From the UHGV virus genome UHGV-0270538: DNA of 14,632 nt. One strand, 5' to 3'. This document shows, in pieces, positions 1 through 14,632 of this stretch (positions within the stretch are counted from its first letter, which is position 1; the number at the start of each line of letters is the position of its first letter). A model generated the notes under the pieces. It was not told where the DNA came from and made no database searches. It was given only the letters and a program-made list of their open reading frames with translations. Position numbers and translations under genes: made by a program. This DNA is from a virus.

Positions 1-690
1 AGTGGTAAGGCACCGGAAATCAAACCCTCGCCCGGCGGCGACACTCCATCGGGGCCGTCTGATGGTGACACATCCGTTCGTACAGTCTCCCTGCTGCCGA
101 CAGCCGGAGAGGCTGCTGCGCAGGGCTGGACCATCACCGGCGGCAGTGTTGCGCTGGAAGATGGTGTGTTTAAGGTTACCAAGCAGAGCAATAAAACTTG
201 GTCCCTGATGCATCCGGTGGATGACGCAGTCTCCCTGCTGACACGGGGTGGCAGACTGAGCTGTAAGTTTCGACTGTCAGGCGCACTGACCAACAACCAG
301 TTCGGTCTGGGAATTTATCTGTATACCGATGTAGCGTTACCTGACGTCGTGGCGATGACCGGGACTGGTAACCCGTTCCTGATGTCGTTCTTCACCCAGA
401 CCACAGACGGCAAACTGAATCTGATGCATCACAGGAAAGCAGGAAACACAAAGTTGGGCGAGTTCGGGAATTACAGTAACGACTGGCAGACGCTGGAGCT
501 GGTGTTCACCGCCGGCAGTGCCACGGTTACTCCGAAACTGAATGGAGTGGCTGGCCCGGCATTCCAGGTCATAAAAGACAGTCTGACACTGGGGCTGAAT
601 GCGCTGACGTTAACTGATATCACTAAAAATGCCGCGTACGGCGTCGATATCGGCAGCCTGGTGCTGGAAATCAATAATCCCGCAGCATAA
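1..690 (+). CDS. 3' part of an unknown gene (230 codons in window); Pro/Gly/Ser/Asp-rich linker followed by a beta-rich, possibly LamG/lectin-like domain
   Basis: Frame 1 is open from position 1 to TAA at 688-690, so the gene starts upstream of the window; the ORF-track start at 166 is an internal GTG. Ends 23 bp before gene R. Function not recognised; the LamG-like call rests on motif appearance only (W-x-x-L-x-L-V-F ... K-L-N-G-V). Confidence 0.55.
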   Translation, partial: SGKAPEIKPSPGGDTPSGPSDGDTSVRTVSLLPTAGEAAAQGWTITGGSVALEDGVFKVTKQSNKTWSLMHPVDDAVSLLTRGGRLSCKFRLSGALTNNQFGLGIYLYTDVALPDVVAMTGTGNPFLMSFFTQTTDGKLNLMHHRKAGNTKLGEFGNYSNDWQTLELVFTAGSATVTPKLNGVAGPAFQVIKDSLTLGLNALTLTDITKNAAYGVDIGSLVLEINNPAA

Positions 691-713
691 GGAAGAGCAG
701 GAGAGCAAAACAG

Positions 714-1181
714 ATGCTTAAGACAAACAGTCTGCGAGAGTCCATGCTTCATGGGTGTCGGTGGTGCCAGGCTAATCCCGAGAAATTCACCATTTTCGTG
801 GAGAGCGGCAACATTGAAACGACCGGGGAAGCGCCCTCGTTTGTTTACCGCTATCAGATGGTGATGTTTGTCATGGATTACGCCGGAGAGCTGGACGACC
901 TCACGCTGCCGCTGCTGGCGTGGTTATCCGAAAATCAGCCACAGTTGTTGCTCAACCCTGAGCGTAATCAGGACATCAAATTCTCCGCCGTTATCAATGA
1001 CGATGACAGCGCCGATCTCCTGTTTACGCTCCCCCTGCGGGAACGCGTTCGCGTCACGCGCAGCAGTCAGGGCACACCGCAGGCAGAACACCTGCCGGAG
1101 CCAAAACCCCGCCTGCCATCTTCCGAAGGCGACTGGTCGCATATATTCCAGGATGTGACGTGGGGTGAAAGCGATGGATAA
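714..1181 (+). CDS. R: tail completion protein R (P2 gpR-like)
   Basis: 155 aa; N-terminus MLKTNSLRES and internal LPLLAWLSENQP resemble recalled P2 gpR; ATG at 714 preceded by a purine-rich SD-like stretch; lies directly upstream of S. Confidence 0.8.
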   Translation: MLKTNSLRESMLHGCRWCQANPEKFTIFVESGNIETTGEAPSFVYRYQMVMFVMDYAGELDDLTLPLLAWLSENQPQLLLNPERNQDIKFSAVINDDDSADLLFTLPLRERVRVTRSSQGTPQAEHLPEPKPRLPSSEGDWSHIFQDVTWGESDG

Positions 1182-1809
1182 GGCATTCACCCGCGTGGAT
1201 GAAACCTTTGAGACCATCCGCGACAGCCTGAATCAGCAGGCCATCAATAACATCGCCAGAAAGCTGGCACAGGATTTACGTCGCGCCCAGCAGGCACGTA
1301 TCCGGTCACAGAAAGCGCCGGACGGGACCGCATGGACACCACGCAGACGCCGCGTAACCCGGATACAGGAGCGCATTCGCTTTATCTGGAATAACGAAGC
1401 ACGCACGCTGAAAAACTGGCATCACGACACGGGGAAATACGGGCGAACCATTACCGGGTGGGATGAGGATAAAAACAGCATCCGCACGTTTTACCGGGAT
1501 GACATCGACCGTTTTCTGGAAATACGCACCCGGCGCATCAACCAGGACAGCACAAAGCGCGTCCCCATGTTCGTAAAACTGCGCACCGCCCGCTACCTGA
1601 AAGCCCGTGCAGATGCCTCCGGTGTGACGGTGGGTTACAGCGGCGTGGCCGCACGTATTGTACGCGTTCATCAGTTCGGTGAGCGCGATCAGGTTGCGCC
1701 GGGCATTTTCACCGATTACCCGGTACGTGAGCTGCTGGGTATCAGCCAGGCAGATGAGCGCCTGATTTATAACACGGTGCTGGGCCGGATTGCGGAGGCT
1801 GTACGGTGA
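1174..1809 (+). CDS. S: tail completion / virion morphogenesis protein S (P2 gpS-like)
   Basis: ORF 1165..1809; ATG at 1174 is preferred over GTG at 1165 because GGGGTGA lies 5 nt upstream. Start overlaps the end of R and the stop overlaps the GTG start of V (GTGA), indicating translational coupling. Position between R and V matches P2 order. Confidence 0.75.
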   Translation: MDKAFTRVDETFETIRDSLNQQAINNIARKLAQDLRRAQQARIRSQKAPDGTAWTPRRRRVTRIQERIRFIWNNEARTLKNWHHDTGKYGRTITGWDEDKNSIRTFYRDDIDRFLEIRTRRINQDSTKRVPMFVKLRTARYLKARADASGVTVGYSGVAARIVRVHQFGERDQVAPGIFTDYPVRELLGISQADERLIYNTVLGRIAEAVR

Positions 1810-2387
1810 GCGCAGAACTCATGCGACTGCTGAGCAACATCATCCGCACCGGGATCATCTCTGAAGTTGATGAGAAGTCCTGGCGCGTGCGCGTTCGCAG
1901 CGGCGAACTGGAAACAGGCTGGTTGCGCTGGAACACCACGCGCGCGGGAGCCTTCAATGTGTGGCTGCCGCCATCACCAGGCGAACAGGTGGTAATTGTC
2001 TGCATTGGCGGCAACCCGGAAACCGCCATGATAATTGGCAGCCTGTGGAGTGATGCCAGTCCGGCCCCCGGCAAAAGCCTGAAAGAAATCGTGGTCAGCG
2101 CGCCGGATGGCGCGGTGTTCCGCTACGACGCAGACGCTGGCGCACTGAGCGCCAGCGGCATGAAAACAGCCACCCTGCAGGCATCCGTCAGCGTGACACT
2201 GGATACGCCCGTCGTGGAATGCACAAACCTTCTGAGAACAGCGACGCTTGACGTCACAAAAGGGGGAAAGATGAGCGGCAATATCACGCACAGCGGCGGC
2301 AATTTCACCTCAAACGGTATCACAGTGCATACGCATAAACACGGTGGCGTTAAAGGTGGCAGCGATTCGACAGGAGGCCCGCAGTGA
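1806..2387 (+). CDS. V: baseplate spike/hub protein V (P2 gpV-like)
   Basis: 193 aa; motifs IRTGII, GEQVVIVCIGGNPE, VECTNLL, TKGGKMSGNITHSGG, VHTHKH match recalled gpV; GGAGG 8 nt upstream of GTG 1806; GTGA overlap with S stop. Confidence 0.9.
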   Translation: MSAELMRLLSNIIRTGIISEVDEKSWRVRVRSGELETGWLRWNTTRAGAFNVWLPPSPGEQVVIVCIGGNPETAMIIGSLWSDASPAPGKSLKEIVVSAPDGAVFRYDADAGALSASGMKTATLQASVSVTLDTPVVECTNLLRTATLDVTKGGKMSGNITHSGGNFTSNGITVHTHKHGGVKGGSDSTGGPQ

Positions 2388-2734
2388 CAACCCGCTACAC
2401 AGGAATGAATCCGGACGGGACGGGAAACCTGAACGATACGGAGCACCTGAAACAGTCAGTCAGGGACATCCTGACCACCCCGCTGGCCAGCCGGGTTATG
2501 CGACGGGAATATGGCAGCCTTGTACCTGATTTGATTGACGAACCCATGAATAACACCACGCGTCTGCAATGCATGAGTGCTGCCGTGATTGCGCTGACAC
2601 GATGGGAACCCCGCATTGCCCTGGACGCCATCGACGTTGTCTGGAAGGCAGGAGGCCGCGCCGGGGTGACGCTGTCGGGCACTGTCATGCAGACCATGCA
2701 GAATGTTGAGTTAACCATCACGCTGAGGGAGTAA
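2384..2734 (+). CDS. W: baseplate wedge protein W (gp25-like, P2 gpW-like)
   Basis: 116 aa; MTTRYTGMN, RVMRREYGSL and WEPRI resemble gpW; CAGGAGG SD 6 nt upstream; GTGA overlap with V stop. Confidence 0.9.
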   Translation: MTTRYTGMNPDGTGNLNDTEHLKQSVRDILTTPLASRVMRREYGSLVPDLIDEPMNNTTRLQCMSAAVIALTRWEPRIALDAIDVVWKAGGRAGVTLSGTVMQTMQNVELTITLRE

Positions 2735-2737
2735 ATC

Positions 2738-3634
2738 ATGCCTGCTGTTGACCTTTCCCAGTTACCGGAACCCGCCATCATCGCGGAGCCTGATTTTGAG
2801 GCAATTCTGGCTGACACAAAGGCCATGATGATTGCGTCCTATCCTGCCGAACAGCGTGAAGCCGTCTCCGCCGCGCTGGAGCTGGAATCGGAACCCCTGA
2901 ACGTTATCGCTCAAACCATGTCTTTTCGTGAAATGCTGTTACGCCAGCGGGTTAACGAGGGCGCACGCGCCTGCATGTTAAGCCACGGTTCAGGGACAAA
3001 TCTGGACAACCTCGCGGGCAATATGAACACAAAGCGCCTGGTTATCACTCCGGCAACGGATACCACCGACGCGGTGATGGAGAGCGACACCTCGCTGAGA
3101 TTGCGGGCGCAGCGGGCGTATGACGGCCTGAGTGTTGCTGGCCCGTCAGGTGCATACGAGTATTTTGCCCGCAGCGCCAGCGGTCTGGTGCGCGATGCGC
3201 GGGCTATCAGTCCGTCTCCGGCCTGTGTGACGGTTTCCATCCTGTCCACTGAAGGCGACGGCACAGCAACGGAGGCGTTGCTTAATACCGTTCGCGCCGT
3301 TCTGAATGCAGAGGATACCCGCCCGGTGGCCGACCGCCTTACTGTACAGAGCGCCAGAATCGTGACATGGCGGCTGAATGCAAAACTGTACTTTTACCCC
3401 GGCCCGGAATCCGAACCTATTCTGGCCGCGGCGGAATCGTCATTCAGGAAGTGGCTGGCTGAACAGGGGCTTATCGGTCAGGACGTGGCGTTGTCCGCCA
3501 TTGCTGCCGCACTTCATGTGCACGGCGTGCAACGCGTGGAGATAATCGAACCCACACAGAATATGGCCATCAGCGACATACAGGCGGCGCGCTGTGAGTC
3601 ATTTACCATCAGCGAAGGTGGGCGCAATGAGTAA
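2738..3634 (+). CDS. J: baseplate assembly protein J (P2 gpJ-like)
   Basis: 298 aa; LSQLPEP, ESEPL, GLSVAGPSGAYEYF, SPSPACVT, RPVADRLTVQSA, YPGPESEPI and LHVHGVQRVE closely parallel recalled gpJ; GAGGGAG SD before ATG 2738. Confidence 0.9.
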   Translation: MPAVDLSQLPEPAIIAEPDFEAILADTKAMMIASYPAEQREAVSAALELESEPLNVIAQTMSFREMLLRQRVNEGARACMLSHGSGTNLDNLAGNMNTKRLVITPATDTTDAVMESDTSLRLRAQRAYDGLSVAGPSGAYEYFARSASGLVRDARAISPSPACVTVSILSTEGDGTATEALLNTVRAVLNAEDTRPVADRLTVQSARIVTWRLNAKLYFYPGPESEPILAAAESSFRKWLAEQGLIGQDVALSAIAAALHVHGVQRVEIIEPTQNMAISDIQAARCESFTISEGGRNE

Positions 3635-4235
3635 TTCACTGTTACCGCCATCAGCCAGCAGTTTCATGCGTTGTGCCGAAGCCGTCGGAACACGCATTAC
3701 AGACATTCCGGTAGACCTCAATACGCTGTGGTCGCCGGATACCTGCCCGGTGCATCTGCTGCCTTATCTCGCCTGGGCGTTTTCCGTTGACCGCTGGGAT
3801 CGCAACTGGCCGGAAGAGACAAAGCGACAGGTAATTCGTGATGCATGGCTGATACACCGACACAAAGGGACCATCAGCGCACTGCGAAGAGCCGTGGAGC
3901 CTCTCGGCTACCTGATTGAAGTAAAGGAGTGGTGGCAACTCAACGAGGAGCCAGGAACATTTCGCATTGTTGTCGGAGTACTTGATCAGGGCATCACCGA
4001 TGAAATGTATCAGGAACTTGAGCGCCTTGTTGCGGATGCAAAACCAGTAAGTCGCCATCTGACGGGGCTGGCGATCAGCCTGAGTGTGAACGGAAAGATT
4101 TTCGTTGGTACGGGATGCTATCACGGCGATGCCCTGACGGTTTATCCCTACACCCCGGAGTCCATTATTGTCGAAGGGGATTATTTCCCTGCCCCGGCCA
4201 TTCATTTAATTGATAATCTAAGAGTAAACGCATGA
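3627..4235 (+). CDS. I: baseplate protein I (P2 gpI-like)
   Basis: ORF track starts at 3594, but homology to gpI begins at MSNSLLPP (ATG 3627) with GAAGGTGG SD 5 nt upstream; start overlaps J stop. Motifs LWSPDTCP, LAWAFSVDRWD, HKGTI, VEPLGY, ADAKPVSRHL. Confidence 0.88.
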   Translation: MSNSLLPPSASSFMRCAEAVGTRITDIPVDLNTLWSPDTCPVHLLPYLAWAFSVDRWDRNWPEETKRQVIRDAWLIHRHKGTISALRRAVEPLGYLIEVKEWWQLNEEPGTFRIVVGVLDQGITDEMYQELERLVADAKPVSRHLTGLAISLSVNGKIFVGTGCYHGDALTVYPYTPESIIVEGDYFPAPAIHLIDNLRVNA

Positions 4236-5839
4236 CAGTGAAATACTACGCCATTCTGACTAATCAGGGCGCAGCACGACTGGCTAACGCGACGATGCTC
4301 GGCAGTAAGCTGAATCTGACGCAAATGGCCGTTGGTGATGCAAATGGTGTGTTACCAACACCAGACCCTGCACAAACAAAACTGATTAACCAGAAACGCA
4401 TTGCACCGCTGAATCTTCTGAGTGTTGACCCTAACAATCAGAGCCAGATTATTGCGGAGCAAATCATCCCTGAAAACGAGGGAGGATTCTGGATCCGTGA
4501 GATTGGTCTTTATGATGATGAAGGTGTACTCATTGCGGTGGCAAACTGCCCGGAAACGTACAAACCGCAGTTGCAGGAAGGCAGTGGACGCACCCAGACT
4601 ATCCGCATGATTCTGGTTGTCACGAACACCGAAGCCATCACGCTGAAAATCGACCCGTCTGTGGTTCTGGCAACCCGCAAATATGTGGATGATAAAATCT
4701 CAGAGCACGAACAGTCACGACGTCACCCGGACGCCTCGCTGACCGCAAAAGGTTTTACTCAGTTAAGCAGTGCAATTAACAGTGAATCAGAAACACTGGC
4801 CGCAACACCGAAAGCAGTTAAGGCTGCATATGACCTGGCTGACGGGAAATATACCGCCCAGAACGCCACCACAACACAAAAAGGGATTGTTCAGCTCAGT
4901 AGCGCCACGAACAGCACGTCTGAAACGCTGGCAGCGACACCAAAAGCTGTTAAGGCGGTAATGGATGAAACGAGCAAGAAAGCACCATTAAACAGCCCGG
5001 CACTGACCGGAACGCCAACAACACCAACAGCGCCACAGGGGACTAATAGTACCCAGATCGCAAGCACGGCTTTCGTTATGGCCGCGATTGCCGCACTTGT
5101 AGATTCGTCACCTGATGCACTGAACACGCTGAACGAACTGGCTGCGGCGCTGGGCAATGACCCGAATTTTGCGACCACCATGACTAACGCGCTTGCGGGT
5201 AAGCAACCGAAGGATGCCACCCTGACGGCGCTGGCGGAGCTTGCTACATCAGCAGATAAACTCCCATATTTTACAGGAGCAGATCGTGCCGCGTTAACCG
5301 CGTTGACAAGTGTTGGACGTGCCATTCTTGGTAAAACCAGCACTCAGGGAGTTCTTGATTACCTTGGTTTGGGAGAAGGCTCTGTATTACCCGTTGGTGT
5401 GCCTGTTCCGTGGCCTTCAGCCACACTGCCAACAGGCTGGCTGAAATGCAACGGGGCGGCATTTTCTGCTGAAGAATACCCGGAACTGGCAAAGGCTTAC
5501 CCGACAAATATATTGCCTGATTTACGTGGTGAATTTATTCGTGGCTGGGATGACGGGCGCGGAGTGGACAGTAGCCGGACGTTGTTGTCGTGGCAAAAAG
5601 GCTCTTATCTGGTTCAGGAAGCCAATATATCACCCGACAGCGTGGTGCAGTTTTCGGTAAACGACATTGCCCTGCTGGGATGGGATAAAACTGAAACCAA
5701 TTCAGATATTCTCAGAGCGAAAAGTATACCTACAGAATATATCTGGAACCCAGTTCCAGTGGGAGCCTGGGGGATTCAGTATCTGGGTTACGCAAGGCCA
5801 CGTAACATTGCATTTAACTACATCGTAAGGGCTGCATGA
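4232..5839 (+). CDS. H: tail fibre protein H, constant N-terminal part fused to the currently expressed variable C-terminal cassette
   Basis: 535 aa; ATGA overlap with I stop; N-terminal two thirds strongly resemble P2 gpH, including the repeated QLSSA-NS-SETLAATPKAVK motif. After the crossover site (5352-5377) the C-terminus carries a tail-collar-type signature (GWLKCNGAAFS ... LPDLRGEFIRGWD). Confidence 0.9.
   Translation: MTVKYYAILTNQGAARLANATMLGSKLNLTQMAVGDANGVLPTPDPAQTKLINQKRIAPLNLLSVDPNNQSQIIAEQIIPENEGGFWIREIGLYDDEGVLIAVANCPETYKPQLQEGSGRTQTIRMILVVTNTEAITLKIDPSVVLATRKYVDDKISEHEQSRRHPDASLTAKGFTQLSSAINSESETLAATPKAVKAAYDLADGKYTAQNATTTQKGIVQLSSATNSTSETLAATPKAVKAVMDETSKKAPLNSPALTGTPTTPTAPQGTNSTQIASTAFVMAAIAALVDSSPDALNTLNELAAALGNDPNFATTMTNALAGKQPKDATLTALAELATSADKLPYFTGADRAALTALTSVGRAILGKTSTQGVLDYLGLGEGSVLPVGVPVPWPSATLPTGWLKCNGAAFSAEEYPELAKAYPTNILPDLRGEFIRGWDDGRGVDSSRTLLSWQKGSYLVQEANISPDSVVQFSVNDIALLGWDKTETNSDILRAKSIPTEYIWNPVPVGAWGIQYLGYARPRNIAFNYIVRAA
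5352..5377. repeat. invertase crossover site (gix/hix-like), left; inside H at the constant/variable junction
   Basis: ttcttgattaccttggtttgggagaa; resembles recalled hixL/gix (TTCTTGAAAACC-AA-GGTTTTTGATAA). Its distal 14 bp (5364-5377) form a perfect inverted repeat with 7303-7316. Confidence 0.65.
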
Positions 5840-6456
5840 TGAGCAAGAAAATCATGACTACAGCGGTGCTGAATGAATCGCGGCTGGCAACAGTTGCAGG
5901 AGAGGTTGTTGTCCACAGCTACGATAATAAGACGCGGGAATACCTTTGCACGTCAACCGAATATCTGGCTGTGGGCGTTGGCCTTCCTGCACATTCATGC
6001 ACTGATGCCCCCGGGGAAAGGCGGGCTGGTTATGTGATTTGCCGCACTGCTGACCTGACCGCGTGGGAGTATGTGCCGGACCATCGGGGTGAGACAGTCT
6101 ATAACACAGAAACCCGTGAGGCAGCAGAAATTACCACTCCGGGTGATTACCCTGAAAACACAACCACTGTCGCACCGTTAACGCCATACGATAAATGGGA
6201 TGGTGAGGAATGGGTGACCGATACAGATGCGCAACATCGTGCCGCTGTAGAAGCGGCAGAAACACAACGCCAGTCGCTGATTGATACTGCAATGGCTTCC
6301 ATTAGTCTGATTCAGCTGAAATTACAGGCCGGGCGGAAACTGACGCAGGCAGAAACAACCCGGCTTAACGCTGTGCTGGATTACATTGACGCGGTGACGG
6401 CAACAGATACCAGTACCGCGCCGGATATCAATTGGCCTGCTCCCCCGGAGGCGTAG
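5836..6456 (+). CDS. G: tail fibre assembly chaperone G (Tfa, Mu U-like), cognate to the expressed H cassette
   Basis: 206 aa; ATGA overlap with H stop; C-terminal Tfa signature (TSTAPDINWPAPPEA); lies inside the invertible segment. Confidence 0.85.
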   Translation: MMSKKIMTTAVLNESRLATVAGEVVVHSYDNKTREYLCTSTEYLAVGVGLPAHSCTDAPGERRAGYVICRTADLTAWEYVPDHRGETVYNTETREAAEITTPGDYPENTTTVAPLTPYDKWDGEEWVTDTDAQHRAAVEAAETQRQSLIDTAMASISLIQLKLQAGRKLTQAETTRLNAVLDYIDAVTATDTSTAPDINWPAPPEA

Positions 6457-6844
6457 GCCAGACGGGATTTGATGTATCAACGCGCATCAGCAAGACCCGG
6501 TATTTTTTCCATTCAGATAACGCGGCGGTTTCTTCTGCCGTCGCGATTTCCGCATCAAAAGCATCCTGTCTCCAGACTATTTCCTTATCAGCCATAGAAC
6601 GCAATACCGTTCTTTTCTGTTCAGCCTGAATAATCTGTTGTTCAGCGGAGAGTGGCGGGATATCAATCCACGCAGGATTACCATTTTTATCAGCCCCCAG
6701 CGTTTTGCCTTCTGGCGCTACGCCTGTGTAAATTGCCATTGTTTCATCATCAACATCAGCGCCATTTTCAGGCCATGAACCGGCGCTGATATATACCTCT
6801 TTTAGTGCTTTCGGATAGAAAGAGCCTTTATAAAATTTATTCAT
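6428..6844 (-). CDS. alternative tail fibre assembly chaperone G' (Tfa), silent in this orientation
   Basis: Minus-strand ORF 6428..6874; preferred start is ATG at 6844 (MNKFYKG...), 2 nt after the H' stop with a GGGG SD-like stretch upstream. C-terminal Tfa signature (WKKYRVLLMRVDTSNPVWPTPP). Converges on G with a 29-bp 3' overlap. Confidence 0.8.
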   Translation of the reverse strand: MNKFYKGSFYPKALKEVYISAGSWPENGADVDDETMAIYTGVAPEGKTLGADKNGNPAWIDIPPLSAEQQIIQAEQKRTVLRSMADKEIVWRQDAFDAEIATAEETAALSEWKKYRVLLMRVDTSNPVWPTPPGEQAN

Positions 6845-6846
6845 TC

Positions 6847-7316
6847 TTAATACCCCAGCGCGATAAAACAACAATCTTCGGTGCCCTCTCCGGATGGCGA
6901 CCAGTTCTGAATACTGATGTGCGTTCTGCTGGCAATACGCACATTCATCGCGGCATTGTAGCCAGATGTTCCACGGTTTCCGGTCGCAAACAAGCCTGCA
7001 TAGGGAAAAGCAAATGGTAAGGCATATCCAGCATCAGCTCCCTTTTGTGTTGCCACCGTTCCCCACTGCAACATAAGTTTCACCGGGTTTCCTGTCGTCG
7101 CAATGCATGGAATGTAGATGTAGCCATTACCTGACATCATTGACCTGAAGCTGTCTAAATCCAGTAACTTCGAGGCATTATCTGCTCCAACATCTCGTGT
7201 TGCAGCGGTCCCTAACTGGAGCGCATTTCGGAAGGCTGATACATCAGAAATATCAGATCCATTAGCCGATTTCTGCATAGCTCTGGAGGCTCTATTTATC
7301 GTTTCTCCCAAACCAA
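6847..7316 (-). CDS. alternative tail fibre C-terminal cassette H' (promoterless, no own start; expressed only after inversion)
   Basis: Minus-strand open frame running from the crossover site (7303-7328) to TAA at 6847-6849. It encodes ...GLGE at the site, the same junction peptide as H (LGLGE at 5366-5377). The ORF-track Met at 7356 lies upstream of the crossover site and is probably not used. Confidence 0.7.
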
Positions 7317-7328
7317 CGTTTAAGAAAA
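7303..7328. repeat. invertase crossover site (gix/hix-like), right; inverted copy 55 bp upstream of the invertase gene
   Basis: Plus strand ttctcccaaaccaacgtttaagaaaa; reverse complement ttttcttaaacg-tt-ggtttgggagaa shares the core and a 12-bp half-site exactly with the left site. Position just upstream of the invertase gene matches Mu gixR/gin. Confidence 0.65.
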
Positions 7329-7383
7329 TGCAGAGATTACGGCTAACTGGCATCATCCCCGGTTTTTATTCAGGGGATCCATC

Positions 7384-7983
7384 ATGCTTATTGGCTATGT
7401 CCGCGTATCAACAAATGACCAGAATACAGAATTGCAGCGTAACGCGCTGGAGTGCGCAGGATGTGAACTGATTTTTGAAGATAAAATCAGCGGAACGAAA
7501 TCAGCCAGACCGGGATTGAAAAAACTGCTCAGAACGCTATCAGAAGGAGATACGCTGGTTGTCTGGAAGCTGGACAGACTGGGCAGAAGTATGAAACACC
7601 TGATCACGCTTATTGAGGAATTGCGGGAAAAAGGTGTTAATTTCCGTAGTCTGACGGACAGCATTGACACATCAACACCCATGGGGCGTTTCTTTTTTCA
7701 CGTCATGGGAGCTTTAGCCGAAATGGAACGTGAATTAATTGTAGAGCGTACACTGGCCGGGCTGGCAGCAGCACGCGCACAAGGACGCATTGGCGGACGT
7801 CGCCCGAAGTTGACAAAAGAACAACACGAGCAAATAGCGAGGCTGATTAAAAACGGTCATGACAGGAAACAACTGGCGATCATTTACGACATCGGCATAT
7901 CGACGATTTATCGTTATCACCCTGTAGGCGATATACAGGCTGAAGAAACAACCAGGCAGACTCAGGAAAATGAAAACCGCTAA
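7384..7983 (+). CDS. site-specific DNA invertase, serine recombinase of the Gin/Pin/Cin/Hin family
   Basis: 199 aa; N-terminus MLIGYVRVSTNDQNT with the catalytic Ser in VRVST; conserved VVWKLDRLGRSMKHL, SLTDSIDTS, MGRFFFHVMGALAEMERELI and a C-terminal HTH region (ISTIYRY). AGGGGA SD 6 nt before the ATG. Confidence 0.95.
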   Translation: MLIGYVRVSTNDQNTELQRNALECAGCELIFEDKISGTKSARPGLKKLLRTLSEGDTLVVWKLDRLGRSMKHLITLIEELREKGVNFRSLTDSIDTSTPMGRFFFHVMGALAEMERELIVERTLAGLAAARAQGRIGGRRPKLTKEQHEQIARLIKNGHDRKQLAIIYDIGISTIYRYHPVGDIQAEETTRQTQENENR

Positions 7984-8009: not shown

Positions 8010-8504
8010 TCAAAACAGCCCTTTAACGGAGCTGGCCGCGCTGTTAAGGGATGATGTGACCTTATCTTTGAAGCCGGACAGCATATCACTGAACGATGAG
8101 GATTGCAGGCGCTCCCGCAAATCCTCATCACAGCGTTCAAGAGTCAGTGAAAATTCTATCTTTTTCGCCTTACCGTAGCGATCAAACTCGGAGCGGGTCG
8201 TATTCGTTCCGGTCAGGACATACATGCCGTAAATCTGCCCGACACCATCAATCAGAGGCCAGGGGCGTCCTGTATATGCCTGCGTGGTCAGCAACGAAAG
8301 CGACACTTCGCCACCTGTAATTTCAGGATAAAGCACGCCGGAAAGCACGATGCGATCATCACCTGCGCCGATATACTGCCAGCTTGCTGAACGGTTAACG
8401 CGTTCATTTTTCACATGCCGCCAGCTTTTGTTTTGCTGTAACTGCTGATGCGGCAATGTGCGCAGCTCAAAAACAAACATGCCGTAGATCATCATCATGG
8501 CCAT
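8010..8504 (-). CDS. U: tail protein U (sheath terminator, P2 gpU-like)
   Basis: 164 aa; MFVFELRTLPHQ, YPEITGGEVSL, WPLIDGVG and FSLTLER resemble gpU. GGAG lies only 2 nt before the first ATG, so the true start may be the third Met (8498). Confidence 0.85.
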   Translation of the reverse strand: MAMMMIYGMFVFELRTLPHQQLQQNKSWRHVKNERVNRSASWQYIGAGDDRIVLSGVLYPEITGGEVSLSLLTTQAYTGRPWPLIDGVGQIYGMYVLTGTNTTRSEFDRYGKAKKIEFSLTLERCDEDLRERLQSSSFSDMLSGFKDKVTSSLNSAASSVKGLF

Positions 8505-8510
8505 GACTCC

Positions 8511-11354
8511 TCAATCTTTATCGTAAAAACTGCCACGTCCGGCACGGTCGCGTCGTTCCAATTCTGCCCTGACCATTTCACCGACCAGTTTCGCCAGTTC
8601 GCGGGGATTCTGCGTAACAACGTTATGCAGATGAACATGAATTTCACCGCCAAATCCGGAGACAACAGGCTCCCGGTTACGGGAAGTTGCAGGAACTGAT
8701 GCCACTGGCGATCGTATGGCCTCCGCCACCGGGCGGGAGCTGGCCGCAACAACAGGGACCAGCGCCGGAGGCAGAGGAGTCGGGACCACGGGTGTGATGT
8801 TGATTGCGGAAGCAGGCTTACTGACCTGCGCAATCTTCCGCTCCTGCCACTCCCCACGAACAGCAAGTGCGCGGGGCAGATTCTTAAAGACAATATCGCC
8901 GGGGCCAATGCGTTTTTTCGTCTCATCAACCAGCTTACCTGTGTTATCAGCAATTTTGCTGAGTCTGCGTAGCGTACCGGTATTGCTGTCTGTGAGCGGT
9001 TTGTTGTCTTTGGGTTTATCACCTCCGGTGCCATTGCCATTTTCCACAGGCTTCGGCGGATTGATTTTCGCCAGGTCCCCCTGAAGCAAGGCAACCTTGT
9101 CCTGAAGAATGGCCGCACGCTGTGCGTCTTCGATTTTCTTACGCGCCCTTTCCGCTTCATCCGGAAGGACGCCAAGTTTTTCAAGTATCCACGCCAGCGT
9201 ATCCAGTAGCATTTTTGCAGGCGTCAGAACAAGTTGTAACGCACCGCCAAGAACGTTACCGAATATCTCGCCAGCACTGGTACATTTATCCAGCGTTTCC
9301 TTGCTGGACTCCATCGGTGACAACAGCGATTTAAACCAGTTAAACACCTGGCTGATCCCGCTTCCGATTGCGTCAAAAACAGGACCAAACCGTTCAAAGG
9401 TTTCGCGCAACGGGGTCAGCCTTTCCATAATCCCGCTGAACACCCCGGCAAAAAATGCCTTAATGGGTTCCCAGTATTTCCAGATGAGAACCGCCGCAGC
9501 CACAAACGCAGCAGCAATCAATCCAACCGGACTGAACAGCGCCCCGATAGCGCCTCCCAGCAAAGAAACAGAACCCGTCAGCATTCCCCACAGCGCAGGC
9601 AACACCCGGACGACATTCATTGACCGGGTAAGAATGTCAAAACCAAGACGCAGGGTGGCCAGCTTTCCGTAAAGCACCCCAATAACCAGCGACAACGAGC
9701 CAATCGTTGCAGTCATTGCCAGCAACGCACCGCCTGCTATCAGTAGCTGGCGCGTCAGTACCGGATGGGCCTGCGCCAGCGAGGTGATTTTTTCAAGCAC
9801 CCGCGTGAGCCACTGCGTGACAGAACGCAGCGGACCGTCAACCAGATCACTGATGCGAATACGAAGACCTTCCCATGCGCTGTCGAGATTTTTCAGGTCC
9901 CCATCAAGATTATCGGCCATTACTTTTGCAACGCGATCGGCCTCTCCCCTTGCCCCCTGCAATTCTCTGGTCAGTTTTTGCAGCTCTCCTGAACCAGCCG
10001 CCGCAACAAGCGTCTGTAAACCAACGAACGCCTCTTCTCCGGCGATGTCCTTGAAGAAGGAAATCTGGTCCACCTGTCCGTATTTTTGTGTCGCCTTATA
10101 GAGATCAAGCAGCACATCCTCCATCGGGCGCATTTTGCCTCTGGCGTCAGCAACTGACACCCCCAGCTCTTTCAGTGCATCAGCCGCAGCTTTTGGCGGT
10201 GATGCAAGGCGGGACAGACTTGCGCGCATGGCCGTACCAGCATCGCTTCCGCGAAGACCATTATTGGCAAGCATCCCGGCCATGGCCGCCGCTTCTTCAA
10301 GACTGATACCAAGTTTTGCGGCAACCGGACCGGTATACTTCATGGTTTCGCCCAGCGCGCGTAAATCAGTATTGGTCCGGGTGAATGCTGCTGTCAGCGT
10401 ATCGCCAACCCGGTCCATTTGATCGGCTGTCAGGTTGAACTGTGTGAGGATATTGGAGCCTATATCAGCCGTCTCGCCGAGTTCGACGCCACCTGCCAGC
10501 GCCATATTAAGAACACCGGGCAATGCGGCCTGAATGGCCTGCGGAGTAAAACCAGCCATTGCCAGAAAGCTCTGCCCACTGGCGGCATCACTCGCAGTAA
10601 ACTGTGTTTCAGAACCAAGTTTTAACGCCTGCTCACGCAGCGCCTTAAACTGCGGGCTGTTTTTGTCGATTCGCGTCAGTGCCTGAACGCGGGACATCTC
10701 TTTCCCGAACCCGATCGCAGGCTGCAAAAAACGCCCGGCAGCATAGCCGCCAGCCGCTGCCGCACCAATTGCCAGCGCACCACCTGTTTTCAGTTTTCCC
10801 GCGGTTTCCTGCGCGCGCGAATACCGCTCACGCGCCCGCGTTACACGCGCAAGCGCCTGCCGTTCGCGTTCAAGCTGGTTGTTGTACTGTTCGGTGCGTC
10901 TGATGGCCTGCTGGATGGTGTTATCGCTGCCTGTCAGGGAAATGCCGTGGCGTTTCAGCTCTCCGCCAAGCTCCCGCATTTTCTGAATTTCCCGTGTGCG
11001 CGATTCATTCAGGCGTTCAAGCCGGGTGCTTAACTGCTGCATCAGCTTTTGTTGTTTTTCGCTGAGCACTGTACCCGTGCGTTGTAACTGATTAAGGGCG
11101 TTAAGCTGGCGTCGTGCTTTCACGATACCCGCATCCGCTTTACTGACAGCGTCGCGGGCGCGCTCAAATGATCGCGCCTGACGCTCGAGATTTTTGATCG
11201 CCCCCTGCGTTCGCTGGATGGAGTCACCAAACTGCCCCATCAGGCGGCGGGCGTTTTCGGCAGGCCGGGTCAGCCTGTCAACGGCGCTGAAAGCGACCCG
11301 GATATCAAGAGTCTTCATTGTCTGCATTCCCGCTGCGAAGTGCCGCCCGCTCAC
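8511..11354 (-). CDS. T: tail tape measure protein T (P2 gpT-like)
   Basis: 947 aa, Ala/Gly/Leu-rich with coiled-coil N-terminal region and hydrophobic central segments; sits between E/E' and U. The GTG at 11354 is uncertain; in-frame ATGs at 11327 and 11318 are alternatives. Overlaps the end of E'. Confidence 0.9.
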   Translation of the reverse strand: MSGRHFAAGMQTMKTLDIRVAFSAVDRLTRPAENARRLMGQFGDSIQRTQGAIKNLERQARSFERARDAVSKADAGIVKARRQLNALNQLQRTGTVLSEKQQKLMQQLSTRLERLNESRTREIQKMRELGGELKRHGISLTGSDNTIQQAIRRTEQYNNQLERERQALARVTRARERYSRAQETAGKLKTGGALAIGAAAAGGYAAGRFLQPAIGFGKEMSRVQALTRIDKNSPQFKALREQALKLGSETQFTASDAASGQSFLAMAGFTPQAIQAALPGVLNMALAGGVELGETADIGSNILTQFNLTADQMDRVGDTLTAAFTRTNTDLRALGETMKYTGPVAAKLGISLEEAAAMAGMLANNGLRGSDAGTAMRASLSRLASPPKAAADALKELGVSVADARGKMRPMEDVLLDLYKATQKYGQVDQISFFKDIAGEEAFVGLQTLVAAAGSGELQKLTRELQGARGEADRVAKVMADNLDGDLKNLDSAWEGLRIRISDLVDGPLRSVTQWLTRVLEKITSLAQAHPVLTRQLLIAGGALLAMTATIGSLSLVIGVLYGKLATLRLGFDILTRSMNVVRVLPALWGMLTGSVSLLGGAIGALFSPVGLIAAAFVAAAVLIWKYWEPIKAFFAGVFSGIMERLTPLRETFERFGPVFDAIGSGISQVFNWFKSLLSPMESSKETLDKCTSAGEIFGNVLGGALQLVLTPAKMLLDTLAWILEKLGVLPDEAERARKKIEDAQRAAILQDKVALLQGDLAKINPPKPVENGNGTGGDKPKDNKPLTDSNTGTLRRLSKIADNTGKLVDETKKRIGPGDIVFKNLPRALAVRGEWQERKIAQVSKPASAINITPVVPTPLPPALVPVVAASSRPVAEAIRSPVASVPATSRNREPVVSGFGGEIHVHLHNVVTQNPRELAKLVGEMVRAELERRDRAGRGSFYDKD

Positions 11355-11834
11355 GCCAGCTAACCACTTCGCCGGGCGTCATCATGAAGATTTCGGCGGG
11401 CGACCAGTTAAAAATGGCGGCAATATCCGCCACAAAGTCTTCTATGTGCTCAAAGCACACAACCGTGATCAGGCTTCCGTCGCCTGTTCGCTCTTCCCGC
11501 CAGAGTCCGCACCGCTCAAAAAATTTACGGCAACCACACATAACTGAATAAAATCACGGGATGCCATTTTTTTGATCGTCACTTCATCCAGTCGTGGCGA
11601 GGTCACGCGTGACAGCAGCGTAAACATGGATTCCGCTTTCAGATTCAGCACATCAGACAGCGACAAATCTCGCAGAGATCCAGCCTGCTCAATAGCCCCG
11701 GTGATCTCCACATACGTGATTTTTTCGCCGCCTCGCTCAATTGGTTGGGTAAGTTTTACGCCACGCTCACTGGTTTCTTTCACAGTGTCAGTAACTACCG
11801 TGTTTTCGGTATCGATGTTTTTCGTCTCTTTCAT
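11305..11834 (-). CDS. E': tail assembly chaperone E+E' fusion made by programmed -1 ribosomal frameshift (about 176 aa)
   Basis: The -1 frame is open from 11553 down to TGA at 11305-11307. Slippery heptamer U-UUU-UUG at 11523..11517 on the coding strand, in frame as AAU-UUU-UUG (N-F-L). Same heptamer and gene position as P2 E/E'. Confidence 0.7.
11469..11834 (-). CDS. E: tail assembly chaperone E (P2 gpE-like; lambda G analogue)
   Basis: 121 aa, acidic; AAGGAG SD 8 nt upstream of ATG 11834; lies between FII and T and contains the T-TTT-TTG slippery site. Confidence 0.8.
   Translation of the reverse strand: MKETKNIDTENTVVTDTVKETSERGVKLTQPIERGGEKITYVEITGAIEQAGSLRDLSLSDVLNLKAESMFTLLSRVTSPRLDEVTIKKMASRDFIQLCVVAVNFLSGADSGGKSEQATEA
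11517..11523 (-). other. programmed -1 frameshift slippery heptamer TTTTTTG (E to E')
   Basis: Plus strand caaaaaa at 11517-11523; on the minus strand it reads T-TTT-TTG in the E frame, with an open -1 frame downstream. Confidence 0.75.
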
Positions 11835-11888
11835 CAGGAAACTCCTTTCAGTCAGAGGCGACGCACTGCGCCGCCTGCATATTACTTA

Positions 11889-12401
11889 TCAGCCAAGCCC
11901 GAGCGCGGAACGGATGCGATCGGGCACAATGTCCTTGCCGTCCTTCCGGTAGATGTGGTTCAACAGGTCGATTTCCCACAGCGGGCGATCGTTAACGCTC
12001 AGCTTGTAGTAGGTGTTTTTGACAGCGTAAGTGTGTGATGTGGCTTCGCCCTGTTTGGCCTCCCCCATATCAATTTCCGTCACACGCCCGCGCATCTCGA
12101 TTTCATACAGATCGCTTTCTGCATCGGTGTAGTATTCACCCGCAAAACGCAGCAGCGTGCTGTCAATCGTGCCGCCATATTTAAGGAACAGCGCACGAAC
12201 AGCTCCCCCCATGACAAAGCTCGCATCAAGCGCGGAGTCGTCCAGACCGAGATCAATACTTACCGCACCCATCATGCCACCACCCCGGTAGCTGTCGGTT
12301 TTGCGCGTCAGCTTAGGCAGAGTGACGGACGTCACCTTACCCACTTCGTTTTCACCATCCACAAACAGCGTAAAAAAGCGAAGATGTTTTGGTACAGCCA
12401 T
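11889..12401 (-). CDS. FII: tail tube protein FII (P2 gpFII-like)
   Basis: 170 aa; VTLPKLTRK, YRGGGM, IDLGLDD, RFAG and EIDMGEAKQGE resemble gpFII; GGGAGG SD; start overlaps FI stop by 1 nt (TGATG). Confidence 0.9.
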   Translation of the reverse strand: MAVPKHLRFFTLFVDGENEVGKVTSVTLPKLTRKTDSYRGGGMMGAVSIDLGLDDSALDASFVMGGAVRALFLKYGGTIDSTLLRFAGEYYTDAESDLYEIEMRGRVTEIDMGEAKQGEATSHTYAVKNTYYKLSVNDRPLWEIDLLNHIYRKDGKDIVPDRIRSALGLG

Positions 12402-13585
12402 CAGGCACCTCCCAGCACCGCAAATGCGGGACCAAAGAATTCATCAGTAAACGTCTGGTAAAGCTCCATGTCTTCCAGTGGCGGAACGGGCGTATATTTG
12501 TAGCGAATACGCACACGTCCCTGACGTAAATCCGTGGTGCCGTTATCCACCACGTCATACCAGCACTCCGCGCCAATCAGTTTCCCGGCAGTAACCAGCG
12601 AATCCAGTTTTGCCCTGATGGCACTGATAACATCCTTCACGTTCGCAGGCGTCAGTGGACTGTCGATGGTTTCAAACTGCGCTTCCGCAATTGAATCAGC
12701 CAGCACCTGTGCGGTTCGGGTATACACCTCAAAGATGTAGGCGTTCGTTTCCGGTGTGCGGTTGCCCCAGAAGCGGAACCCGTTACGACGAATAATGGTC
12801 GTGATTTCTTTGTTGTTGAGGCTGTTGGCATCACTGTCTTCGGCCTGTAACGACCAGAACACATGCCTCGACATCCCCAGCACATTTTTAACCGGAACGT
12901 TGGACAGCGATTTGTGCCAGCCCTGCTCATGGTCAATGTACGCACGAAGGCCGCACGCATAAGCAGGCGCGGGGAACGTTTCGTTTTTGCCACTTTTCGG
13001 GTTGTAGGCGATGAAGTCCGGCCATAAGAGCATCACCTCACGTTCGTTGAATTTCTGGCGGTAGGTAATTGCCTCAGCCATCGTGTTACAGTCATGACAT
13101 GAGGCATACACAAACGCGCGCAGTTTACCCGCAATCACGCACAGGGATTTTGTCACCGCCTCCGTGTCCAGCTCCGGCGCGGCCAGAATACGCGGACGGT
13201 ATCCGATGCTTTCATCCTGCTCTGCAACAAGCAGCGCATACATCCCCGTATAGCTGCCGTCAGATTCAGAACCACCGATAACCAGTTGATCCTGCGTCTT
13301 ACCGCCTTCTTCTTTGTGTTCAGCCACGCGAACGACGATCACTTTTGTGCTCACCTGGTCTGCAATAGCCTTAAGCGCACGATAAAGCGTCCCCGTAGTC
13401 CCGCATTTTCCCAGCACGTCATTGACGCGGGTCAGCAGTGTGGGCTTGTTCAGCGGGAACAGCTCCGCGTCCGCATCATCCGCCGTTGCCACGATACCGA
13501 TAACACTGGAATCAACATCATTAATCGCTGTTACCAGGTCGGTACTTTCCGTAACACGGGCACCATGAAAACGAGTTTCACTCAT
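12401..13585 (-). CDS. FI: contractile tail sheath protein FI (P2 gpFI-like)
   Basis: 394 aa; FPLNKP, KLRAFVY, YRQ-F, WPDF, DHEQGWHKSLSNV, IRRNGFRFWGNRT, YTRTAQV and YKYTPVPPLE match recalled gpFI; AAGGGG SD 8 nt before the ATG. Confidence 0.95.
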   Translation of the reverse strand: MSETRFHGARVTESTDLVTAINDVDSSVIGIVATADDADAELFPLNKPTLLTRVNDVLGKCGTTGTLYRALKAIADQVSTKVIVVRVAEHKEEGGKTQDQLVIGGSESDGSYTGMYALLVAEQDESIGYRPRILAAPELDTEAVTKSLCVIAGKLRAFVYASCHDCNTMAEAITYRQKFNEREVMLLWPDFIAYNPKSGKNETFPAPAYACGLRAYIDHEQGWHKSLSNVPVKNVLGMSRHVFWSLQAEDSDANSLNNKEITTIIRRNGFRFWGNRTPETNAYIFEVYTRTAQVLADSIAEAQFETIDSPLTPANVKDVISAIRAKLDSLVTAGKLIGAECWYDVVDNGTTDLRQGRVRIRYKYTPVPPLEDMELYQTFTDEFFGPAFAVLGGA

Positions 13586-13742
13586 AGCTTCAGCCCCTTG
13601 TATCCGTTAAATGATTCGGCAACAATCATCACCCACCACGCGCGTAATCTCACCCCTGCGCCGTTCTCCCGCCACGGCGACAACAAAAAGCAGTAACCCC
13701 CTATGCACGCACATGCGACCATGCCGCACAGGGAGGGAACAG

Positions 13743-14632
13743 ATGACCGATACCACCATGCAATTGCTCAGTCAGAGCACAGACCCCGTGAAAATGCCGG
13801 ATTTTGATATTCTCGCGGAGGGGGAAACACTGTCCGGCGTGGCAGAGCGCCTGATGAGCCTGTCACTGACCGACAACCGGGGATTTGACGCGGACCTGCT
13901 CACCATCACGCTGGATGATGCGGATGGTCAGTTGCAGCTACCGCCACGGGGCGCGCGCCTGACGGTTCTCATTGGCTGGAAAGGAGAACCGCTGACAGAA
14001 AAAGGCACTTACATTGTTGATGAAATCGCTCACGAAGGACCGCCGGACAGGCTGACTGTTTCAGCCAGAAGCGCAGATTTTCGGGATGAATTTAACGTTA
14101 AACGTGAGGTGTCCTGGCATGATGTGACCATTGAGCGTGTGGTATCCGCCATCGCTCACCGGTACGGTCTGAAACCGCAAATCAGCGAAATGCTGATGGA
14201 TATTGAAATCGACCACGCCGACCAGACCGAAGAAAGCGACATGTCCTTCCTTACGCGCATGGCGGAAATGCTGGGCGCAATCACTACGGTAAAAAGCAGT
14301 AATCTGTTATTCATCATGCCAGGCGGTGGCGTGAACGCACAGGGTCAGCCGTTGCCATCGTTCGCCATCACACGCAGCAGCGGCGATCGCCATCAGTTTC
14401 GCATTGCTGACCGCGAAGCGTATACGGGGGTACGCGCTTACTGGCTTGATCTTAATTACGGGAAAAAGAAAAAAGTCAGCGTGAAACGCCGCAAACCGCC
14501 AAAACCCAAAAAGGAGAAAAGCAGCAGCCGTGAAGGTGATTATATGGAAGGCGCGGAAGGCAATGTGTTTGTGTTACGCAAGACTTATCAGAACGAGCAG
14601 GCAGCAAGACGCGCAGCGGCGGCAAAGTGGCA
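13743..14632 (+). CDS. D: tail protein D (P2 gpD-like), 5' part; continues beyond the window
   Basis: Open frame from ATG 13743 (GGGAGGG SD 6 nt upstream) to the window end, 296 codons. Motifs SLSLTDNRGF, DDADGQ, RSADFR, SWHD, QTEESD, FLTRMAE, AYTGV, lysine-rich KKKKVSVKRRKPPKPKKEK and EGDYMEGAEGNVF match gpD. Absent from the ORF track only because no stop falls in the window. Confidence 0.9.
   Translation, partial: MTDTTMQLLSQSTDPVKMPDFDILAEGETLSGVAERLMSLSLTDNRGFDADLLTITLDDADGQLQLPPRGARLTVLIGWKGEPLTEKGTYIVDEIAHEGPPDRLTVSARSADFRDEFNVKREVSWHDVTIERVVSAIAHRYGLKPQISEMLMDIEIDHADQTEESDMSFLTRMAEMLGAITTVKSSNLLFIMPGGGVNAQGQPLPSFAITRSSGDRHQFRIADREAYTGVRAYWLDLNYGKKKKVSVKRRKPPKPKKEKSSSREGDYMEGAEGNVFVLRKTYQNEQAARRAAAAKW

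Follow-up and report, generated by a model that had tools for sequence, protein, structure and literature searches.

What is the gene that lies directly upstream of R, at the place where the lysis genes of P2 would be expected? This question is raised by positions 1-690 of a stretch of 14,632 nucleotides from the virus genome UHGV-0270538, which we refer to as the window. A first reading made from the letters alone (the sequence-only reading) had described there an unrecognised gene coding for at least 230 aa, with a Pro/Gly/Ser/Asp-rich linker and a beta-rich, LamG/lectin-like C-terminal domain, perhaps a lineage-specific structural or accessory (moron) protein. On the plus strand, frame 1 has no stop before the TAA at 688-690 and holds 229 sense codons counted from base 1, the 5' end of the gene being beyond the window edge. 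The length given earlier was right as a lower bound, as near-identical full copies encode 626 aa.

The stop codon is followed by a 23-nt spacer (691-713, plus strand) with AGGAG at 699-703, 10 nt 5' of the ATG of R. A scan of the equivalent region in the sequence carrying the TOE17 prophage (L001) revealed no terminator-like site in this spacer. The downstream neighbour at 714-1181 (plus strand) encodes the tail completion protein gpR (PF06891 at 7e-39), and R is followed in the window by S, V, W, J, I, H, G and an invertible fibre segment with a serine invertase.

The open frame at 1-690 is a real gene and not a chance ORF. The dN/dS of the C-terminal domain that it encodes is 0.20-0.30 when compared to three lambdoid alleles, and the domain is under purifying selection. 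Two other ORFs in this region were rejected as genes: the minus-strand ORF at 471-752 is without a family match, and the frame-2 ORF at 2-208 matches phrog_19075 marginally (E 0.0024) while frame 1 matches the same family far better.

The encoded protein belongs to a known family. It matches Pfam DUF6645 (E 7.4e-20), PHROG families 3591 (2.9e-89) and 143 (9.4e-81) and, over residues 34-226 of the window protein, the C-terminal domain of 'NanS-p' in PDB 6YP6 (E 5.9e-31). With the NanS-p family described and the structure of this very domain solved, the gene can no longer be called unrecognised. A DNA comparison places bases 1-690 at 87-92 % identity to a gene found in Stx2 phage 86, phage 434, H-19B and many Stx1a phages, where the counterparts are annotated as SASA family carbohydrate esterase or 9-O-acetyl-N-acetylneuraminic acid deacetylase. 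For the window domain, identity to Stx2 phage 86 reaches 91 % in protein and 92 % in DNA, compared to about 87 % in DNA for phages 434 and YYZ-2008. Homology to the lambdoid nanS-p alleles stops at the TAA codon (688-690, plus strand). NCBIfam scans of the fragment and of the full protein yielded nothing meaningful and the RefSeq label for the full gene is 'DUF6645 domain-containing protein' only. We consider it highly probable that window 1-690 encodes the linker and lectin-like domain of a NanS-p-family sialate (Neu5,9Ac2) O-acetylesterase, and that this gene is a moron in the late morphogenesis/lysis transcription unit of a P88-like P2-type prophage, placed between lysC and R.

For the catalytic and N-terminal domains, which the window does not reach, we rely on 99%-identical relatives. 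A 1,881-bp gene of 626 codons is present in E. coli chromosomes with 99.4-99.6 % identity to window 1-3000, and its frame is unbroken in the inspected prophages. The 626-aa protein consists, in order, of DUF1737 (residues 4-53; PF08410 at 3.3e-07, 30.5 bits for a cut-off of 24), SASA (PF03629 at 5e-13), the Pro/Gly/Ser linker and DUF6645. Residues 69-388 match E. coli NanS/YjhS (PDB 3PT5) at 3e-123. The esterase motifs are intact in the full copies, with GQSN at 80-83 and RPTH at 365-368, the latter being the block IV variant recorded for NanS-p of Stx2 phage 86 (PMC10462455). The solved chain of chromosomal NanS has 337 residues and matches residues 69-388 only, corresponding to SASA, with no counterpart of DUF1737 or DUF6645; the part encoded in the window is therefore without counterpart in NanS.

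DUF6645 is a small family, with 58 cluster representatives among 1.84 billion. We scanned ten distant representatives and found SASA and/or DUF1737 as the only other Pfam domains, while five have DUF6645 alone. One protein of 294 aa from outside the window (P0057) lacks a SASA domain and has just a Gly/Ser-rich linker between DUF1737 and DUF6645. It thus consists of the reported capsid-anchor domain and the lectin-like domain only.

The interdomain linker occupies window 1-75 (plus strand), as read from the translation and from a pLDDT below 50 for residues 1-24 in the structural model. It corresponds to residues ~398-422 of the 626-aa protein and aligns with the linker between SASA and the C-terminal domain in NanS-p from 933W, Stx2-86, 434 and YYZ-2008. 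Positions S398, E403, P406, S407, P413, S414 and G415 are invariant in this alignment. The stretch quoted in the sequence-only reading, PEIKPSPGGDTPSGPSDGDTS, is residues 5-25 of the window protein, and both the linker and the beta-rich C-terminal part were correctly recognised there. We also observed that the linker at window 1-75 aligns with the region of phi24B gp84 in which autoproteolytic loss of the C-terminal domain has been reported. The preprint describing this loss points to motifs containing SSP; the window linker reads KPSPGG...TPSGPS and that of 933W reads RPSSPSG.

The remainder of the gene (76-687, plus strand) encodes the DUF6645 domain, the lectin-like jelly-roll of NanS-p C-termini that is presumed to be a carbohydrate-binding module. 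An AlphaFold2 model of the window protein is all-beta after the linker, with 14 strands (pLDDT 67.7, pTM 0.67). Confidence in the model is moderate: most entries recovered by the word-indexed homologue search were fragments or frameshifted, which left the underlying alignment shallow at 9 rows. Structurally, the domain comes nearest to L-type lectins, sialidase lectin domains, GH16 and PL7 enzymes and calreticulin, and the matches include lectin domains of Bacteroides and Akkermansia sialidases, Emp46/47, ERGIC-53, VIP36 and legume lectins. These are concanavalin-A-like folds, and 'lectin-like' is therefore correct at the level of the fold. The LamG half of the earlier description found no such backing, with no Laminin_G profile match in a Pfam scan up to E=1, which returned DUF6645 only, and no LamG domain among the top structural matches listed. 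Sequence identity between the window domain and the sialidase lectin domains (V. cholerae 2W68/1W0O, BT_1020, Am1547) or L-type lectins is 8-15 %, and the domain has no Pfam match to either of these families.

To what extent is the putative sugar site conserved? Four aromatic residues have been proposed for the sugar site of vb_24B_21, namely Y510, Y515, Y540 and F611 (PMC10462455). Three of the four are kept aromatic in the window protein (F101, Y106 and F131), and the position of F611 is taken by a leucine (L197). Together with an identity of 36 % between the window domain and the crystallised phi24B/933W type, this substitution indicates that the ligand specificity may differ. Carbohydrate binding by the DUF6645 domain is itself a proposal from the literature (PMC8065619).

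We then asked where the full gene sits. The gene order in full copies is capsid scaffold, major capsid protein, terminase small subunit, L, X, holin, M15 endolysin, LysB (DUF2570), LysC, esterase, R, S and V, and the Peduoviridae record vB_EcoM-705R2 has a matching order up to the end of the record. The host prophage is a P2-type prophage of the P88-like lineage (Xuanwuvirus, Peduoviridae). As holin, M15 endolysin, LysB and LysC lie directly upstream in the 99%-identical prophages, the lysis cassette is present and the esterase is an extra gene between lysC and R. The earlier statement that the gene lies where P2 carries its lysis genes is thus incorrect. The accompanying observation that the product does not resemble P2 lysB or lysC is accurate, the window ORF being without a match to DUF2570 or to an Rz1-like lipoprotein in Pfam and PHROG.

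Over R to J, the window shares 97 % identity with P88 and other Xuanwuvirus phages, whose site is empty, with lysC leading directly into R. At the left junction, P88 and the prophages occupied by the esterase gene are collinear up to the lysC codons ending in DKRAI and diverge from there. The occupied lysC ends in a new 18-codon tail whose TGA overlaps the ATG of the esterase gene (ATGA). The last ~18-22 lysC codons are wholly different in the two forms, DKRAI being followed by AELDKRIAELTHQTGVTQ and a stop in the occupied form (L001 18740-18813) and by ELLEQRRLQRLNNEDNNHAEN and a stop in the empty form (L006 3905-3975). The 3' end of lysC overlaps the start of R in P88 and the start of the esterase gene in the occupied form.

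At the right junction, the first ~14 codons of R represent a diverged allele and the 97 % nucleotide identity to P88-like phages holds from window ~756 on. A megablast of window 700-3000 to Xuanwuvirus phages begins at query position 57. Correspondingly, gpR is 95 % identical to P88 R and the differences cluster in residues 5-14. Because the lysC and R ends that flank the insert are divergent, this arrangement suggests that the cassette may now move among P2-type phages by homologous recombination in the flanks. The moron interpretation has held up, given the empty site in P88, and it survives because the product has no homology to a P2-family lysis or capsid gene.

The gene shows no sign of being transcribed independently. 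We found 2 sigma-70 promoter-like sites around the gene compared to 4.8 expected from shuffled sequences, and 10 intrinsic terminator-like sites compared to 10.0 expected. With no excess of either signal, there is no evidence for a transcription unit of its own. Nor does the gene form a compositional island, as the GC content is 0.52-0.59 across the gene and 0.51-0.62 in the flanks. The P2 late-promoter dyad TGT-N12-ACA has 6 matches compared to 10.7 expected, and none of these precedes the capsid scaffold gene in this lineage. Because a canonical dyad is missing from that position, the assignment of the esterase gene to the late operon depends on how the genes are ordered and on the absence of internal signals.

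Comparison with the lambdoid alleles along the gene reveals a mosaic. Nucleotide identity is about 50 % (unrelated) in DUF1737, 67-97 % in SASA and 82-99 % in the C-terminal part. The same trend is found at the protein level: DUF1737 shares 22 % identity with its counterparts in 933W and Stx2-86 and has a 4-residue loop insertion, while identity is 70-80 % for SASA and up to 91 % for the C-terminal domain. Among phage records, the P2-type variant of DUF1737 is found in only three entries, all P88-like, and a word-indexed protein search returned it from Escherichia and one Enterobacter only. An AlphaFold2 model of this domain was uninformative (pLDDT 50.5) and was left out of the fold search.

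To estimate how common the arrangement is, we searched complete E. coli genomes with window 490-890 as the query for the occupied junction. The occupied junction is present in 375 of the 5,426 genomes (~7 %), with 286 of the 375 at 99 % identity or higher, and the P88-type empty junction in 689 of the 5,426. Of all P88-type lysC-R junctions found in complete E. coli genomes, roughly two in three are consequently without the esterase gene. The genomes listed with an occupied junction are mostly from human isolates, and one phage record is from an O25b:H4-ST131 strain. The TOE17 prophage (L001 7789-10434, 24232-24967 and 34052-34852) is visibly degraded and carries an intact esterase gene. Its integrase is frameshifted, an IS1 lies beside a truncated cox, H is annotated as partial with the C-terminus missing, and the gpD CDS is ~300 nt shorter than that of P88.

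What would such an enzyme do for the prophage or its host? NanS-p enzymes are active prophage-borne de-O-acetylases of Neu5,9Ac2 and mucin, as demonstrated for lambdoid alleles. Their induction is strong and coincides with that of the late genes, and they enable lysogens to grow on Neu5,9Ac2 (PMC8065619). We infer the timing, release, substrate and binding of the P2-type enzyme from this family literature and from the anatomy of the gene and protein, and think that it is most likely a late-expressed esterase freed by lysis and equipped with a carbohydrate-binding module. It would be made only late after induction, alongside the lysis and virion proteins, because the gene is without its own promoter and terminator and its ATG is coupled to the stop codon of lysC (ATGA). 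It would probably leave the cell only upon phage lysis, since DUF1737 occupies the N-terminus, the place of a signal peptide. Once outside, the SASA domain may strip O-acetyl groups from mucin sialic acids, with the lectin-like domain encoded in the window tethering the enzyme to sialoglycans. The sialic acid would thereby become accessible to surviving lysogenic kin. The presence of nanS-p has been noted in 'non-Stx prophages' (PMC10462455). The searchable literature yielded no assay of a P2-type prophage enzyme and no paper joining 'P2-like' with 'O-acetylesterase', and none of the Xuanwuvirus papers is about this gene as far as their titles and the openings of their abstracts tell.

Alternatively, the protein may be chiefly a virion component whose DUF1737 plugs capsid hexons while the esterase and lectin-like domain are displayed and bind or remodel mucus sialoglycans. 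This possibility overlaps with the released enzyme and does not exclude it; we regard it as unlikely, though as the main rival. According to a 2026 preprint, gp84 of phi24B (NanS-p) is abundant in virions, with DUF1737 forming a hexamer in the hexon pores and the other domains later shed by proteolysis. In the P2-type copy a DUF1737 variant of its own accompanies closely related SASA and C-terminal domains, as one would predict for an anchor that has to fit a different capsid. The confinement of this variant, among phages, to P88-like Peduoviridae records, with proteins only from Escherichia and Enterobacter, points in the same direction, as does the location of the gene inside a structural/lysis operon, and the fusion of DUF1737 to DUF6645 without an esterase (P0057) fits an anchor-plus-cargo design. 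On the other hand, the gene is dispensable, as seen from the predominance of empty lysC-R junctions. An occupied prophage and the empty-site P88 share 94 % identity in the capsid protein with no obvious co-adaptation, which is not a decisive signal either way. The Tyr42 'tooth' is missing at the aligned position and W45 and Y46 are nearby, in an alignment that is unreliable at 22 % identity, and the model of the P2-type DUF1737 is too poor for a comparison at its pLDDT of 50.5. P2-family capsids are T=7 and do not have a flat facet-centre hexon as in phi24B. The phi24B protein binds, according to the 2026 preprint, only the flat facet-centre hexons of the T=9 capsid. That the P2-type NanS-p is displayed on the capsid with its lineage-specific DUF1737 as an anchor re-fitted to the P2-family capsid is, in our estimation, rather improbable. 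If true, P88-like virions would carry a sialate esterase and a lectin module on their heads, and DUF1737 would be a capsid adaptor that lambdoid and P2-type phages exchange, with a SASA and lectin cargo that recombines freely. To our knowledge, no decoration protein of a P2-like phage has been described.

Other explanations fare less well than the lysis-released esterase. The enzyme might aid adsorption by removing O-acetyl groups from the O-antigen or from an O-acetylated sialic-acid capsule, opening access to the receptor. Such a role has been raised as an open possibility for NanS-p enzymes (PMC8065619), and, with its elaborate switchable tail fibres, the phage is one to which host-surface interactions matter. 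We nevertheless find it very unlikely, as the catalytic domain is very near NanS (3e-123) in a family active on Neu5,9Ac2 and mucin glycans (PMC8065619), a tail-fibre or baseplate attachment domain is missing with only DUF1737, SASA and DUF6645 found, and empty-site relatives including the isolated phage P88 adsorb without the gene. It is also conceivable that the gene is a non-functional, decaying remnant of a lambdoid nanS-p captured by illegitimate recombination, considering that some host prophages are degraded (TOE17 with its IS1, frameshifted integrase and partial H) and that many database entries of the family are fragmentary or frameshifted. This is highly improbable: against it stand the intact 626-codon frame and motifs in the inspected prophages, a dN/dS of 0.2-0.3, and a 5' part of the gene that is essentially invariant in nucleotides between two complete P2-type copies and over the extent of the partial phage record. 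The junctions are moreover precise, with start/stop coupling and the ribosome-binding site for R both kept, and the occupied junction recurs at 99 % identity or higher in most of the genomes that carry it. Finally, the sequence-only reading had raised the idea of a novel lineage-specific structural protein in place of the P2 lysis genes. The position directly 5' of R and the lack of anything resembling lysB or lysC in the window spoke for this suggestion. It has become scarcely credible and we take it as refuted, both by the intact lysis cassette upstream in the 99%-identical prophages and by membership in a described family with a solved structure.

How does the P2-type esterase gene compare with known systems? 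The lambdoid NanS-p proteins (933W L0105/z1466, phi24B vb_24B_21, which is gp84, Stx2 phage 86 gp03 and 434 gp71) share the architecture of DUF1737, SASA, linker and DUF6645, and in both groups the gene lies in the late region beside the lysis genes. In contrast to the lambdoid hosts of described NanS-p, the P2-type copy resides in a myovirus (Peduoviridae, Xuanwuvirus). It lies 3' of the lysis cassette, after lysC and before R, whereas lambdoid nanS-p is found between Q/stx and the holin gene, and its DUF1737 is a distinct variant. The Peduoviridae host, the position after the lysis cassette and the divergent N-terminal domain set it apart from described NanS-p.

A second comparison concerns the accessory (moron) genes of P2, which include old, tin, fun(Z) and orf30. 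Like these, the esterase gene is dispensable, is patchy within its lineage and has conserved essential genes on both sides. The classical P2 morons are found elsewhere and are mostly expressed from the prophage. The esterase gene, unlike them, belongs to the late operon, in which it occupies the lysC-R junction without signals of its own.

NanS-p esterases have been discussed almost only as cargo of Stx and lambdoid prophages and as a mucus fitness factor of EHEC. Here a NanS-p with a swapped N-terminal domain is found at a fixed site of a P2-type prophage in ~7 % of complete E. coli genomes. Carriage by P2-type prophages gives a mucin-foraging function a larger reservoir and more ways to spread, and the P2-type gene constitutes a natural domain-swap experiment for the proposed role of DUF1737 as a capsid anchor. 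The current annotation as 'DUF6645 domain-containing protein' masks a probable sialate O-acetylesterase.

The tail region of the window provides additional observations. An invertible tail-fibre segment has a 17-nt inverted repeat, ACCTTGGTTTGGGAGAA, whose arms at window 5361-5377 and 7303-7319 are 94 % complementary. The first arm is inside the fibre gene H and the second close to where a minus-strand alternative fibre tip begins. The genes involved are at 4232-5839 (plus strand), 5836-6456 (plus), 6428-6874 (minus), 6847-7356 (minus) and 7384-7983 (plus). The minus-strand alternative tip (Gp53-like_C) has its own chaperone (Caudo_TAP), and a serine invertase (Resolvase and HTH_7) adjoins the segment, which we take to resemble the Mu G and P1 C host-range switches.

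The FI-FII-E-T-U operon, encoding sheath, tube, E/E', tape measure and U, lies 3' of the invertible segment at 8010-13585 on the minus strand, opposite to R-G. It is followed by gpD at ~13740-14632 (plus strand), which starts divergently and extends beyond the window end. The layout of P88 matches, and the opposite orientation of this operon is therefore a feature of the Xuanwuvirus lineage and not a rearrangement of this copy.
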